Assembly (NCBI GenBank): GCA_016192825.1
Contig: JACPTK010000045.1
Span: 8,236 to 72,235 of the forward strand
Origin: Betaproteobacteria bacterium
GTDB lineage: Bacteria; Pseudomonadota; Gammaproteobacteria; Burkholderiales; SG8-41
Length of the DNA stretch: 64,000 nt
Reading direction: 5' to 3'
Below the pieces are notes generated by a model that worked only from the letters and a program-made list of their open reading frames with translations, searched no databases and was not told the origin of the DNA. The first letter of the stretch is position 1; the number at the start of each line of letters is the position of its first letter. Of the stretch, positions 27,823-61,685 are shown piece by piece. A program made the position numbers and the translations under genes.

Positions 27823-28849
27823 GATCGGAAGCTGGGCCGAGGAGAAGCGCTCGGCGTACCTCTACCGCGTCGTGGCGGAGCGTGAAGCGGGGTCCCCGCG
27901 GGGCGCGTTGTTCGCCGAGCTCGCGCAGGAGGCGGACAAGCAGGCCGCCATCTGGGAACGCCATGCGCGCAGCGCAGGGCACGCGGTTCCGGAGCGCTTC
28001 GTTGCCGACCTCCGCACGCGCATCGTCGCGCGGCTGGTCAGGCGCCTCGGCGTGCGGCCGCTGCGCGGTGTGCTGGCCGCGATGAAAGTCCGCGGGATGT
28101 CGCTCTACACCGGCGCGGCGCACGGCCACGCGCTGCCGCGCTCGGTGGACGAGGTGGGCGGGCGTCACCGCGGGTTGGAGAGCGGCGGTAATCTTCGCGC
28201 CGCCGTGTTCGGCGTCAACGACGGGCTGATCTCCAACGCGAGCCTCATCCTGGGAATCGCGGGCGCCACCGCCGACAACCAGATCGTTCTGCTGTCGGGC
28301 GCGGCAGGCCTCATCGCCGGGGCATTCTCGATGGCGGCCGGCGAGTACGTCTCGGTGCGCTCGCAGCGCGAGATGTACGAGTACCAGATCGGGCTCGAGC
28401 GCGAGGAGCTCGCGCACTATCCCGACGCCGAGGCCGAGGAACTGGCGCTGATCTACGAAGCGCGCGGGCACCCGCGCGAAGAGGCGGTCTCGATGGCGAA
28501 CAACCTGATCGCCGACCCGGACAGGGCGCTGGCGACGCTCGCGCGCGAGGAACTGGGTCTCAACCCCGAGGATCTCGGCTCGCCGTGGGGCGCGGCGCTG
28601 TTCTCGTTTTTTTCCTTCGCGGTGGGCGCCGCGATTCCGCTCGCGCCGTTCCTGATCGCCGCCGGGACCGCGAGCCTGGCGCTCGCCGTCGCCTTCACCG
28701 CGGCGGCCTTGTTCGCGGTCGGCGCGACGCTCTCGCTCTTCACCGGCCGCAGCGCCGTGCTGAGCGGGCTGCGCATGCTCGCGATCGGCGCCGCCGCGGG
28801 CGGCTTTACTTACCTGATCGGAAGGCTGCTCGGCGTCACGCTGACTTAG
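27815..28849 (+). CDS. VIT1/CCC1-family Fe/Mn transporter with N-terminal ferritin-like domain
   Basis: ATG 27815 overlaps the MFS end. The sequence carries ...GGNLRAAVFGVNDGLISNASLILGIAGA... and C-terminal TM helices. Confidence 0.8.
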   Translation: MDEIGSWAEEKRSAYLYRVVAEREAGSPRGALFAELAQEADKQAAIWERHARSAGHAVPERFVADLRTRIVARLVRRLGVRPLRGVLAAMKVRGMSLYTGAAHGHALPRSVDEVGGRHRGLESGGNLRAAVFGVNDGLISNASLILGIAGATADNQIVLLSGAAGLIAGAFSMAAGEYVSVRSQREMYEYQIGLEREELAHYPDAEAEELALIYEARGHPREEAVSMANNLIADPDRALATLAREELGLNPEDLGSPWGAALFSFFSFAVGAAIPLAPFLIAAGTASLALAVAFTAAALFAVGATLSLFTGRSAVLSGLRMLAIGAAAGGFTYLIGRLLGVTLT

Positions 28850-28970
28850 CTGCCAGCCGCCAGCCGTCAGTCAAGCTGTTTGCTGATAGCTGGTAGCTGG
28901 TAGCTGGTAGCTGGTAGCTGGTAGCTGGTAGCTGGTAGCTGGTAGCTGGTAGCTGGTAGCTGGTAGCTGA
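28846..28970 (+). repeat. Heptamer array: degenerate CAGCNNN units followed by (TAGCTGG) x11 perfect plus 1 imperfect
   Basis: Perfect units start at 28887 and recur every 7 nt to 28957. The last unit is TAGCTGA at 28964. The array opens at the VIT-family stop TAG (28847-28849) and fills the gap between convergent genes. Confidence 0.95.
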
Positions 28971-28980
28971 CAGCTGTCTG

Positions 28981-29367
28981 TCAGCATTGTTCCCACGGCA
29001 GCCCTTCGTGGCGCCACCCGGTCTTCGAGTTGCGGTGGTGGTTGTCGTCGAGCTCGCCCTCGAAGCCGTGCAACACGTTCCAGACCTGCGTGAAGCCGGC
29101 TTCCTCGAGCGCGCGCGCCGCGTCGAGCGAGCGGTTGCCGCTGCGGCAGATGAGGACGATGGGACGGTCCACGCTCGCCGCCTTCTTCACGTGCGCGACG
29201 AACTCCGGATTCACCTCCCAGTTCGGCCCGTCGTTCCACGGCACCAGGATCGCGCCCGACGGATGGCCCACGAACAGGTACTCCATCTCGCTGCGGCAAT
29301 CGATGAAGATCGAGTTCGGGTTTTTCTTCAGGAACTCGTAGGCTTCCTTGGGCTCGAAGTGCTTCAT
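28981..29367 (-). CDS. Rhodanese-domain sulfurtransferase
   Basis: 128 aa with the active-site loop CRSGNRS in ...DRPIVLICRSGNRSLDAARAL.... Confidence 0.85.
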   Translation of the reverse strand: MKHFEPKEAYEFLKKNPNSIFIDCRSEMEYLFVGHPSGAILVPWNDGPNWEVNPEFVAHVKKAASVDRPIVLICRSGNRSLDAARALEEAGFTQVWNVLHGFEGELDDNHHRNSKTGWRHEGLPWEQC

Positions 29368-29535
29368 TGGATAATTTCGCTCGCCTGAACGGAAGCGGAA
29401 TTATAAATTGAACCACCCACGATCGGCCAGCGGCGCGGCATTCGGGATAAAATCAACACCTTTTTCGTCAGGGTCTTTTGCGGGTAGGCGGTTGGGCATT
29501 GCGCACCGACTGCCTGCCGAAAGAACAACTCCAAC

Positions 29536-60730: not shown

Positions 60731-61578
60731 GCCGGCGCTCGCGCCTCCACCCGCTTCATGAAGTCGAGGAAGATCGTGGCGAGATCGGCCTCGCGTGCGT
60801 CCCATTCCTCGCGCGGTGCGACGTCCAGGTCGTAATGCTTCGTGATGAGCGGGTGCACTTCGGCGTCCGGCATCAGGCGGCCCAGGTTCTCGGCCGCGCT
60901 GCGCAGGTGGCTCAAGTCGTTGCCCGGCACGATGCAGGCCGGCGCCCGGATCGAGCGGATCTCGGCCTCGGTCGCGCCGATCACCGGCTTCTCCGCGCCC
61001 TCGAGGAAGTCCCGGTTCCAGCTCGACATGACCTCGATGAAGCGCGCCGGATCCATCCGCATCAGGCGGTCGTGGTTTTCGGGCCGGTCCCTGATGCGCT
61101 CGGCGAACTCCTCCGTCGCGCAGACTGCCGCCATGCCGCCGGCCCGTGCGATCTCGATGTACTGGCCGTAGTAGCGGCGCGCGAGCCGCTTCGCCGCGGC
61201 GAGTCCCCCGGTGACGCGCCACAGCAGGAGTCCCCGGACGGCCTGCGGGTGACGCAGGGCGAACAGCAGCGCGAGCCGGCAGCCCGAGGAGCTGCCGCCG
61301 ATCCATGATGGAAACGCGTTCTGCTGTTTCAGCAGCTCGTGCAGATCGTCGGCCCAGATGGCGTTTTCGGATTCGTTGCCCTCGATGACGACGTCGGAGG
61401 CGCCGCAGTTGCGCCGGTCGTGAACCAGCACGCGATAGCCGGCGCCGGCGATCCGCTTTGCGAGCGACTCCACGCCCTCGATCGCCCGCCGCCCGCCGGG
61501 CGACAGCGCCACCCACGGGCCCCGGGTGCCGAGCACTTCATAATGGAGGGCGACGCCGCGTACGGTTGCGATGGGCAT
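60718..61578 (-). CDS. Alpha/beta-fold hydrolase
   Basis: ATG 61578 follows CGGAG. MPIATVRGVALHYEVLG...VLVHDRRNCGASD.... The nucleophile elbow is GGSSSG. Confidence 0.8.
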   Translation of the reverse strand: MPIATVRGVALHYEVLGTRGPWVALSPGGRRAIEGVESLAKRIAGAGYRVLVHDRRNCGASDVVIEGNESENAIWADDLHELLKQQNAFPSWIGGSSSGCRLALLFALRHPQAVRGLLLWRVTGGLAAAKRLARRYYGQYIEIARAGGMAAVCATEEFAERIRDRPENHDRLMRMDPARFIEVMSSWNRDFLEGAEKPVIGATEAEIRSIRAPACIVPGNDLSHLRSAAENLGRLMPDAEVHPLITKHYDLDVAPREEWDAREADLATIFLDFMKRVEARAPAPAR

Positions 61579-61602
61579 GATGAACTCCGATCGAGATAAA
61601 GG

Positions 61603-61630
61603 CGTGGCTCGTGGATCGTGGGTTGTGGGT
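61603..61630 (+). repeat. Heptamer array CGTGGCT CGTGGAT CGTGGGT TGTGGGT
   Basis: Lies upstream of the hydrolase start. It is the inverted partner of the array at 61658-61685. Confidence 0.7.
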
Positions 61631-61657
61631 CGACTGAAATTCAAGCAATGCTTTGAC

Positions 61658-61685
61658 GTTCACGGTCCACGACTCACGATTCACG
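61658..61685 (-). repeat. Heptamer array (minus strand CGTGAAT CGTGAGT CGTGGAC CGTGAAC)
   Basis: It supplies the last codons and the stop of queD (AAG CGT GAA TCG TGA). Confidence 0.85.

Follow-up and report, generated by a model that had tools for sequence, protein, structure and literature searches.

Here we describe a family of short tandem repeats found in 64,000 nucleotides of DNA from an uncultured Betaproteobacteria bacterium of the Burkholderiales (assembly GCA_016192825.1, contig JACPTK010000045.1, positions 8,236 to 72,235 of the forward strand), a stretch that is called the window below. The repeats have a period of seven nucleotides and are mostly four units (about 28 nt) long, a (G)TGA core dominates among them, and they stand at or near gene boundaries in a defined orientation; in seven window open reading frames (ORFs) the stop codon itself lies in an array. 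According to our analysis these four-heptad arrays are real and statistically strong, and in kind they match the Xanthomonas (GGGANTN)4 repeats, the cyanobacterial short tandemly repeated repetitive (STRR) sequences and the TAACTGA repeats. As to their origin, we would tentatively, and at somewhat less than an even chance, see in them a lineage-specific family of four-heptad modules, comparable to STRR and to repetitive extragenic palindromic (REP) elements, which was spread by copying and is kept where translation tolerates it.

All the loci listed in an earlier note on this DNA, made from the sequence alone, are present as written, their units being confirmed by reading each locus, and arrays were found in the window both by Tandem Repeats Finder and by our own period-7 scan, the two tools which that note had proposed. 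The former returned 65 rows, of which 20 were heptad arrays of period 7, and nearly all of its arrays with a short period (5-9 nt) and more than three copies had this period. Under a strict criterion (at least 80% self-identity across 4 units, with dinucleotide-preserving shuffles as the control) the window, whose GC content is 62-68%, held 11 period-7 loci versus 0.1 in the shuffles; identical scans at each of the periods 8-15 gave 0-1 loci. TGA stood in phase at period 7 in at least three of four units at 12 loci, versus 0-3 at periods 5, 6, 8, 9 and 10. The recurrence of the period and of the length of about 28 nt, which had been proposed before, is thus non-random, as judged from the shuffle test and from the run length of in-phase TGA, whose mode is 4. 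The earlier note had also named absence from independent assemblies as a possible refutation. An independent Logan contig (L001, from SRR12113432) carries the arrays: it matches the window across the displayed 3' stretch and ends inside the AGCTGGT array, and therefore the arrays are not an artefact of one assembly. An assembly artefact is rejected, the same features being present in many independent assemblies. Along the window the distribution is patchy: positions 1-28800 are without any period-7 array of at least 4 units and show only a weak in-phase TGA signal at 7775, and all the arrays are confined to the remaining 35 kb.

Genes were placed by Pfam and NCBIfam scans together with a codon-usage log-odds model trained on the long genes of the window; around 50866-50918 the gene names were read from translation against the gene order of two relatives, L002 and L003. 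The arrays between genes, with one related pair of period 8, are as follows.

28846-28980, plus strand: heptad tract occupying the whole convergent spacer between the VIT and rhodanese genes, TTAGCTG CCAGCCG CCAGCCG TCAGTCA ..., then AGCTGGT about 12 times, then AGCTGAC AGCTGTC.
33231-33258, plus strand: array at the metH 3' end, GTGATGA GTGATGG GTGACGA GTGATGA; the first TGA is the metH stop (33232-34).
36483-36517, no strand assigned: weak heptad array, GGTTGCC GGTTTCG GTTTGCG GGTTGCC GGCTTCT, without an in-phase stop.
50866-50918, plus strand: degenerate arm and its partner, G-strand CGTGAAT CGTAATT CGAGGCA, then C-strand GCATCAC CAGTCAC GCTTCAT CAGTCGC.
53186-53213, minus strand: array before an AP_endonuc_2-like gene, reading CGTGAAT CGTGATT CGCGAGT CGTGATT on that strand.
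56249-56276, plus strand: array at the cupin_7 3' end, GTGACTC GTGACCC GCGGCTC GTGACCG; the first TGA is the cupin_7 stop (56250-52).
56385-56412, minus strand: array at the DctP 3' end, reading GTGAAGC GTGATGG GTGATGA GTGAAGA on that strand; the first TGA is the DctP stop (56409-11).
57918-57997, no strand assigned: period-8 pair related to the heptads, (CGGGAGAT) 4.2 times, then CTCCCGC GCTCACGC GCTCCCGC.
58645-58714, minus strand: array at the 3' end of a 117-aa ORF, GGTTGGC five times running into TGACGGC TGACAAC TGACGGC on that strand.
60676-60706, plus strand: array at the cupin_2 3' end, CGTGAAT CGTGATT CGTGAGT CGTGATT CGA, that is (GANTCGT)n.
61603-61685, minus strand: pair in the tandem spacer of queD and an abhydrolase gene, in the sense direction CGTGAAT CGTGAGT CGTGGAC CGTGAAC, a 27-nt loop, and a C-strand arm.

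The seven ORFs with stop codons in arrays are VIT, metH, cupin_7, DctP, cupin_2, queD and the 117-aa ORF. In the first of these tracts TAG is in phase on the plus strand and includes the VIT stop (28847-28849), the rhodanese stop (28981-83) abuts the tract, and the tract folds better than its shuffles (z = -5.7); within 28846-28970 Tandem Repeats Finder counts 13.7 copies of AGCTGGT in this assembly, preceded by degenerate heptads. The 117-aa ORF (58671-59024, minus strand) is stopped by the first TGA of its array. The cupin_2 stop (60685-87) is the TGA of the second unit of the 60676 array, giving the C-terminus ...GRES* with a GC hairpin after the array, and the queD stop (61674-76, minus strand) lies in unit 2 of the array at 61658, giving ...KRES*. 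A relative's MetH (P0126) also terminates ...RES*, as cupin_2 and queD do; these unrelated proteins share array-encoded C-terminal residues because each ORF enters the CGTGAATCGTGA module in the same frame. The queD array is paired with an arm at 61603-61630 that ends about 25 nt short of the start of the abhydrolase gene, on the non-coding strand, and the pair folds with z = -2.8 relative to shuffles. Likewise, the arrays at 56249 and 56385 are convergent partners, and between them is a GC hairpin with T/A runs. The earlier note was right in placing the stops of metH, both cupins, DctP and queD inside arrays and in letting the VIT stop open one; its rule that arrays stand on or just after stops does not extend to the 61603 arm or to the array at 36483-36517, which is 159 nt past the upstream stop and 31 nt ahead of an AAA-ATPase start. 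At 50866-50918 the G-strand arm is 11 nt past the stop of a 153-aa ORF, syntenic with a DUF4124-like gene in L002, and 6 nt separate the C-strand arm from the ATG that follows, which belongs to a truncated GFO_IDH_MocA-like gene; at 53186-53213, where the C-strand is sense, the array lies 7 nt ahead of the ATG of the truncated AP_endonuc_2-like gene. In the period-8 pair at 57918-57997 GGGA and GTGA cores alternate on the reverse strand, GGGA being carried by some of the period-8 relatives of the arrays. The same period-8 family, (CGGGAGAT)n with an inverted partner and alternating cores, was also seen in related genomes, in L427 (about 1990-2090) and L428 (about 1600-1640).

It had been proposed that the unit differs from locus to locus and that this argues against one dispersed repeat. 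This is overstated, since the (G)TGA core dominates and near-identical ordered 28-mers recur at non-orthologous loci. In 192 kb of sequence from the clade TGA/TCA is the commonest in-phase trinucleotide (21 runs of at least 4 units), yet it is a rare word, and GTGA/TCAC is the commonest in-phase tetranucleotide (14 runs). Written in the orientation of the gene that each one ends, the arrays at 33231, 56249, 56385, 60676 and 61658 are all (N)GTGANN(N) four times over. The reverse complement of the 53186 array equals that at 60676 in 27 of 28 bases; 46154 and 48135 hold identical 28-mers, the terminal variant unit included; 43292 and 58645 have their first 18 bases in common; and the array at 60677 differs by 1 base from one on the metagenome contig L178, at a non-orthologous locus next to an unrelated gene, read as dnaQ-like from its translation. 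Conservation of unit order exceeds that of the controls: 72 close pairs were observed, whereas 200 unit-shuffled sets averaged 57 and reached 69 at most. GANTC, which the earlier note had singled out in several arrays, belongs to one sub-family only (2-11% of GTGA units); neither GANTC nor methylation was accepted as a unifying feature, the window having 158 GANTC sites where 200 were expected, which is not an enrichment. Complementarity of a Shine-Dalgarno type (GGUGAUC versus the 16S 3' end) was not supported by the logos at positions 5-7.

The rules of placement were examined on a larger scale by a strand-neutral scan of metagenomes for GTGANNN three times followed by GTGA, which gave at least 120 matches, and placement was counted on contigs of less than 60% GC, where long ORFs are reliable (87 arrays among the matches listed). 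Among the matches listed, the contigs with arrays range from 34 to 70% GC, the matches are evidently real arrays, and the run lengths are 111 of 4 units and 18 of 5 units, then a thin long tail up to 18 units. The clade itself gives the same picture in its 192 kb, where runs of in-phase TGA number 9 with 3 units, 20 with 4 and 1 with 5. Intragenic arrays (29 of the 87 among the matches listed) have the TGA strand antisense in 29 of 29 cases. Between genes, again among the matches listed, the stop of the upstream ORF lies inside the array or no more than 16 nt off in 17 of 26 arrays whose TGA strand is sense, and in 1 of 27 arrays of opposite orientation, which supports the proposal that an array shares the orientation of the gene which it terminates. 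In the last 26 nt ahead of a start the preference is reversed, with 10 of 19 for arrays whose stop-free strand is sense versus 3 of 20 for the TGA strand, among the matches listed. Pairs of arrays at most 200 nt apart are convergent (a GTGA arm followed by a TCAC arm) in 60 cases and divergent in 1, and the paired arms have a median identity of 88% as inverted repeats. In the window, arrays are held by 0 of 13 divergent, 3 of 13 convergent and 6 of 33 tandem spacers.

The common architecture, from a stop to the next start, is a G-strand arm, a GC hairpin and a C-strand arm, and separate GC-rich hairpins are often flanked by arrays. The suggestion that inverted pairs could form hairpins stands for several of them, which fold better than shuffles, and fails for others (58640 with z = +0.3, 50855 with z = -1.1). 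A terminator-pattern scan of the window gave 13 matches versus 12.1 expected, hence no excess; the arrays themselves do not fit an intrinsic terminator (GC stem-loop with a U-tract), and Rfam 15 at the gathering threshold gave 0 matches in the window. A generic inverted-repeat search was swamped by chance matches in such GC-rich DNA. Scans of viral contigs for the GTGA core and for a control core, GAGT, gave at least 120 matches each, counts that provide no contrast; the control core overlaps GTGA arrays, and its stop content equals a rough random expectation of about 50%.

The heptads are also found within coding sequence. A UvrA-like ORF at 42939-48866 (minus strand, 1975 aa) encodes a duplicated UvrA widespread in Proteobacteria, and four further arrays had been reported inside it; arrays are indeed present, and the count is six (43292, 43338, 43917, 43975, 46150 and 48130) at four sites.

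43292-43369, plus strand: inverted pair, AGTTGGC/AGCCGTC four times, then GCTGACG four times; loop of aa 1833-1859, TGA strand antisense.
43917-44003, no strand assigned: inverted pair, GATGGCG five times, then TTCGCCA four times; loop of aa 1622-1650.
46150-46185, plus strand: array of AGTGCTG five times; loop of aa 894-906 with the peptide SALSTQHS, TGA strand antisense.
48130-48161, plus strand: array of GAGTGCT 4.6 times; loop of aa 236-246, TGA strand antisense.

The first pair is conserved in L002. The second forms a hairpin with z = -4.2 relative to shuffles, and its conservation, looked for in 6 relatives, was significant in only 2 of the 6. In an alignment of 22 UvrA-like homologues the array regions are insertions in four hypervariable surface loops, and the more distant homologues are without these insertions. 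In close relatives the loops hold peptides with a period of 7 residues, for example HPSSLIP, RHSSLVT, NHESRIT and SPITHH, which are heptamers read in three frames; back-translated, RHSSLVT corresponds to CGTCACT, NHESRIT to AATCACG and SPITHH to TCACCCA, the TGA strand being antisense. One and the same unit is common to several loops of a genome (GAGTCAC in three loops of L071, CCATCAC in four of L012, CTCATCC in three of L004, CAGCACT in two of the window), and the units of orthologous loops differ between genomes. Judging from these sequences, such sharing probably reflects concerted evolution or copying between arrays within a genome. Arrays are concentrated in this gene, a hot spot with 4-7 of them per 6 kb versus few in 20 kb of flanks, as sampled in the window, L002, L003, L004, L005, L012, L071 and L030, the last being a Lysobacterales homologue with unrelated units. 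Members of the UvrA-like family range from 1,838 to 2,169 aa (about 1,900-2,100 aa for the window gene and its relatives), and the aligned homologues differ mainly at the array loops.

A scan of species-representative genomes with the UvrA-like protein yielded 80 loci. The density of period-7 arrays is 2-6 per 10 kb in 8 loci of the clade (closest relatives at 71% identity or more, all uncultured Burkholderiales) and in the Lysobacterales locus, and 0-0.8 per 10 kb in 70 other proteobacterial loci of similar GC; the arrays are clade-specific. Comparison of orthologous gene ends, suggested in the earlier note, shows that sites persist while units turn over, the cases being the 3' end of metH, the 5' end of AP_endonuc_2 and the loops of UvrA. 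In relatives the metH gene ends in CGTGAAT twice, in GTGACCN three times or in GTGACGA GTGAACG (2-4 GTGA heptads), the protein tails varying accordingly. The window MetH extends 4 aa past the conserved LAYE motif, versus 2 aa in E. coli, and therefore the array begins at the natural end of the protein, with no truncation. An orthologous array directly upstream of the AP_endonuc_2-like gene is found in the window, in L002 (at 1412) and in L003 (at 6209). Two pairs of close strains, one at 90% identity and one near-identical, were checked for polymorphism of unit number, and neither was informative.

The arrays had been considered not to belong to a described class. The heptamer class is in fact described, by Rehm 2015 (PMC4692102) and MacGregor 2015 (PMC4679880), besides STRR; in the literature that was searched, the variant with GTGA, the lineage hosting it and its wide occurrence in metagenomes are not described. 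The heptamers GGGAATC or (GGGANTN)n of Xanthomonas and GGGGA(C/T)T of Nostoc have four units as a clear mode, occur as 70-75 convergent inverted pairs per genome, are about 90% intergenic and rare between divergent ORFs, and lie at a mean distance of 28 nt from the 5' ORF versus 160 nt from the 3' ORF; their G-strand is coding after stops, with overlap of stop codons included, and non-coding before starts, and the sites are common to related species with length and sequence variable (Rehm 2015, PMC4692102). That study ascribed the preference for four units to formation of a G-quadruplex (PMC4692102). The window arrays, too, are tandem heptamers, in arrays of at least 2 units, with a conserved 4-nt core, variable positions (5 and 7) and a mode of four units, and we see the same convergent pairs, proximity to the 5' ORF, strand rule and rarity in divergent spacers. 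One of the window units, CGTGANT, if written GANTCGT, is one position off the GAATCGG of Xanthomonas. The differences are that our units (GTGANNN, CGTGANT, AGCTGGT) are without a G3 run, so that tracts of three to four G are not found in them; that the in-phase TGA supplies real stop codons; and that the host is an uncultured Burkholderiales clade with a strong hot spot in a double-UvrA gene.

The TAACTGA repeats are patchily distributed in Beggiatoaceae, cyanobacteria and Bacteroidetes, intergenic, in 2-6 copies (MacGregor 2015, PMC4679880), and their forward strand overlaps only the very end of an ORF, the reverse strand being translatable inside ORFs (PMC4679880). They share with our arrays the heptamer, the in-phase stops and the same stop-codon logic, and TAACTGA, written as CTGATAA, is one base from the GTGATAA units of metagenome loci; the TAACTGA unit as such is absent from the window. 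Directly upstream of starts they show the stop-bearing strand, unlike our arrays, which show the stop-free one, and they have a single fixed unit and rare inverted pairs where ours have a core with variable positions.

More remote relatives may be considered as well. Heptamer repeats have been noted since 2007 as over-represented in bacteria, without an accepted mechanism or function. Cyanobacterial STRR are lineage-specific, mostly intergenic tandem heptanucleotides (CCCCAGT, TTGGTCA, CAACAGT), often in long arrays; both the units and the host phylum differ from ours, which is a Betaproteobacteria metagenome-assembled genome with relatives in Burkholderiales. REP elements, bacterial interspersed mosaic elements (BIME) and REP doublets forming hairpins (REPIN) are short extragenic repeats at gene 3' ends, in convergent and tandem spacers, as inverted doublets forming hairpins or as singlets; they are lineage-specific and of defined polarity, and their sites are conserved while sequences turn over. 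A REP is an imperfect palindrome of about 20-40 nt with a GTAG head, the spacer of a REPIN is conserved, and the cognate REP-associated tyrosine transposase (RAYT) is known; the arms in our case are, in contrast, direct heptad arrays with a GTGA core and not palindromes. Rickettsia palindromic elements, of 100-150 bp, are inserted in frame in surface loops of housekeeping proteins without destroying the protein, and are in this respect analogous to the six arrays of the UvrA-like ORF, while not being tandem heptamers. The omega repressor of pSM19035 and inc18 plasmids, a ribbon-helix-helix (RHH) protein, binds WATCACW heptads upstream of promoters. A TCAC or ATCAC core is present in many of our units. 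The arrays are at gene ends and not at promoters; the scanned window ORFs gave no match to an omega-type repressor or the RHH family, and contain a weak zeta-toxin-like gene paired with Phd/YefM and not with omega.

In the reading that we tentatively prefer, the basic module would consist of four heptads with a G-T-G-A core and TGA in phase, two modules being often set convergently around a GC-rich hairpin. We infer that such modules spread and are renewed mainly through copying between arrays, that their survival is filtered selectively, and that they have no dedicated function. Copying may proceed by inverted duplication, which would produce the partner arm, and by ectopic conversion or some mobilising activity, with replication slippage adding and removing units on top of it; the identical or near-identical 28-mers, the unit order, the sharing of units between UvrA loops and the 88% identity of arms all seem to support it. 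The mode at four units, which Xanthomonas shares, speaks for a discrete module, and the strand counts in ORFs, beside stops and before starts speak for the filter; the restriction to the clade, the lasting sites with changing units and the intact end of MetH also favour this reading. Modules would persist flush with an ORF 3' end when the TGA strand is sense, where they can overrun and replace the native stop, and, when the stop-free strand is sense, shortly before a start codon or in protein loops that tolerate them. If translation filters the survival of modules in this way, the supply of stop codons would therefore be a by-product and not their purpose. An effect on the host, if any, would most likely be similar to that of REP and BIME, by means of hairpins at mRNA 3' ends.

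Several observations weigh against this explanation. Unit order is conserved only modestly beyond shuffles, and many distinct units (AGCTGGT, AGTGCTG, AGTTGGC, GATGGCG) occur in one genome. The DNA between paired arms differs in length and sequence, unlike that of a REPIN and unlike miniature inverted-repeat transposable elements too, and neither a RAYT/Y1 transposase nor a candidate binding protein was detected among about 50 window ORFs scanned. The translation filter alone cannot explain the 60:1 convergent polarity, and it cannot account either for the stop-free Xanthomonas GGGAATC repeats being under the same placement rule. The sharp four-unit mode and the position-specific conservation could also reflect a selected binding site.

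The last point leads to the main rival, according to which four G(G/T)GA heptads are recognised by a factor (an RHH-type DNA-binding protein, an RNA-binding protein, the ribosome or Rho), the arrays regulating or marking gene boundaries or being mobilised by it as RAYT mobilises REPINs. Module length, core and polarity would be better accounted for by such a factor than by the copying model, and the fixed core among positions that vary within one array, the strict 60:1 convergence, reminiscent of operators or terminal inverted repeats, the same core on contigs of 34-70% GC among the matches listed and the alternation of GGGA and GTGA within single period-8 arrays all speak for it, while the ATCAC of the C-strand may by analogy be compared with the omega heptad core. 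We hold it nevertheless to be unlikely: the scanned window ORFs offer no candidate protein, the arrays lie in protein loops and beside unrelated housekeeping genes without a functional theme, many arrays are without the core, and units turn over freely at conserved sites. Selected RNA hairpins, whose convergent arms would lengthen the stem of an intrinsic terminator or of a protective 3'-end hairpin, and in tandem spacers would couple translation through a terminating ribosome that melts the 5' arm and so frees the downstream ribosome-binding site, we find improbable. Their layout from stop to next start, the 88% identity of the arms, the window pairs with z = -2.8, -4.2 and -5.7 and the empty divergent spacers agree with this suggestion; many arrays are single, however, the 58640 and 50855 pairs fold no better than shuffles, the in-ORF pair is significant in few relatives, the terminator scan gave no excess, and the opposite order of arms, which would fold equally well, is almost never seen.

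The arithmetic by which heptads with TGA place stops in three frames, pointed out in the earlier note, is correct, and it would be logical to think of a fail-safe cassette selected to catch frameshifted or read-through ribosomes. Among the observations in line with it, TGA outnumbers every other in-phase trinucleotide in the arrays of the clade despite being a rare genome word, its strand is sense beside stops by 17 versus 1 among the matches listed, and seven window ORFs take their stop from an array. Selection for three-frame stops is not supported, and the cassette appears to us very improbable, as the same core also lies antisense, in ORFs and ahead of starts, and stops nothing there, the Xanthomonas GGGAATC repeats share the placement, polarity and four-unit mode while being stop-free, three units would be enough where the mode is four, and a published survey reports that extra stops are not selected for in bacteria (PMC6764699). 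Ordinary microsatellites, made by polymerase slippage in situ with an intrinsic 7-nt step and without copying between loci or constraint, correspond to Mrazek's proposal as it is quoted in Rehm 2015 (PMC4692102). The long perfect AGCTGGT tract of 13.7 copies, the metagenome arrays reaching at least 18 units among the matches listed, the 2, 3 or 4 units at orthologous metH ends and the heptamer over-representation reported in many bacteria are of the sort that slippage would give, and slippage accounts for that tract as well as for unit numbers that vary among relatives. As a general account it is already disfavoured, and we attach little probability to it: the length distribution is non-monotonic with a peak at 4, the core is shared across loci and genomes, ordered heterogeneous modules recur at unrelated loci, pairs have a 60:1 polarity, and sister lineages of equal GC are without arrays. 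G-quadruplex-forming repeats, as proposed for the heptamers of Xanthomonas and Nostoc, would match the four-unit preference by the four G-tracts that are needed; units with the GTGA core have no run of three G and yet keep the same four-unit mode and placement, and we give this explanation a practically negligible chance.

The only structural hypothesis put forward so far finds a natural control in the GTGA arrays, whose main value is that they separate the rules from G-quadruplex chemistry: a GTGA family without quadruplex potential keeps the rules of four units, polarity and placement, and therefore the cause of these rules is broader than the formation of quadruplexes. One may even speculate, although we would consider it as rather unlikely, that convergent, ORF-flush four-heptad G(G/T)GA modules form one widespread and hitherto unrecognised gene-boundary class, uniting Xanthomonas GGGAATC, TAACTGA, STRR-like and GTGA arrays (on contigs of 34-70% GC among the matches listed) and read or installed by a conserved machine or a dedicated protein. 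In that case the length of four units would be set by the factor and not by formation of a G-quadruplex, and the terminating ribosome, Rho or a mobilising enzyme similar to that of the REPIN/RAYT system would be candidates for it. Apart from any such unification, metH and queD are examples of housekeeping genes whose functional stop codon has come to be supplied by a heptamer repeat, and such repeats can also be written into the surface loops of a DNA-repair protein; the arrays blur annotated gene 3' ends, create variable C-terminal tails and interrupt short-read assemblies.

Heptad arrays border on both sides an AT-rich island at 51120-53160. L002 and L003 have an intact GFO_IDH_MocA / DUF993 / AP_endonuc_2 block, the greater part of which the island appears to replace in the window, short N-terminal gene fragments being left at 50925 and 53221. 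The island contains a beta-class N6-adenine DNA methyltransferase (51161-52156, minus strand), which resembles CcrM weakly and below the cut-off. It also contains an ORF (52436-53134) with a weak match to PD-(D/E)XK nucleases below the Pfam cut-off.

Several short tandem-repeat families, heptamers among them, populate the spacers of the clade. A 9-mer tandem repeat, ACAGGATTA, is present in 2-3 copies at three loci (6806-6823, 42913-42938 and 60036-60063); one copy directly adjoins the UvrA-like gene at its TAG stop, and another lies 28 nt past the TctC stop and is followed by its own inverted copy, ACAGGATTAAATCCTGT. A period-10 repeat, CGCAGATACA, with 2.8 copies at 49996-50087, has an inverted partner 35 nt off in a divergent spacer, and a similar repeat, CGCAGATAAA, stands three times upstream of AP_endonuc_2 in L002 (about 1460-1490).

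Other features of the window are of more local interest. Downstream of metH, a cluster of toxin-antitoxin type (33628-42492) includes a MazE-like gene, an AAA ATPase, Fic/DOC, a weak antitoxin of the Xre/MbcA/ParS type and a weak zeta-toxin/AAA_33-like gene (34268-34894) beside a Phd/YefM antitoxin. A 276-bp tandem repeat at 3220-3788 (2.1 copies, 83% identical) lies inside an ORF of 921 aa (2376-5141, minus strand) with GHL15, fn3 and Big domains, and most likely arose when a protein domain was duplicated. Two carbamate kinase paralogues lie at 48985-49947 and 53345-54703, both on the minus strand; the second has an open frame of about 150 codons past the kinase domain, and a long ORF (53202-54752) overlaps it in another frame.

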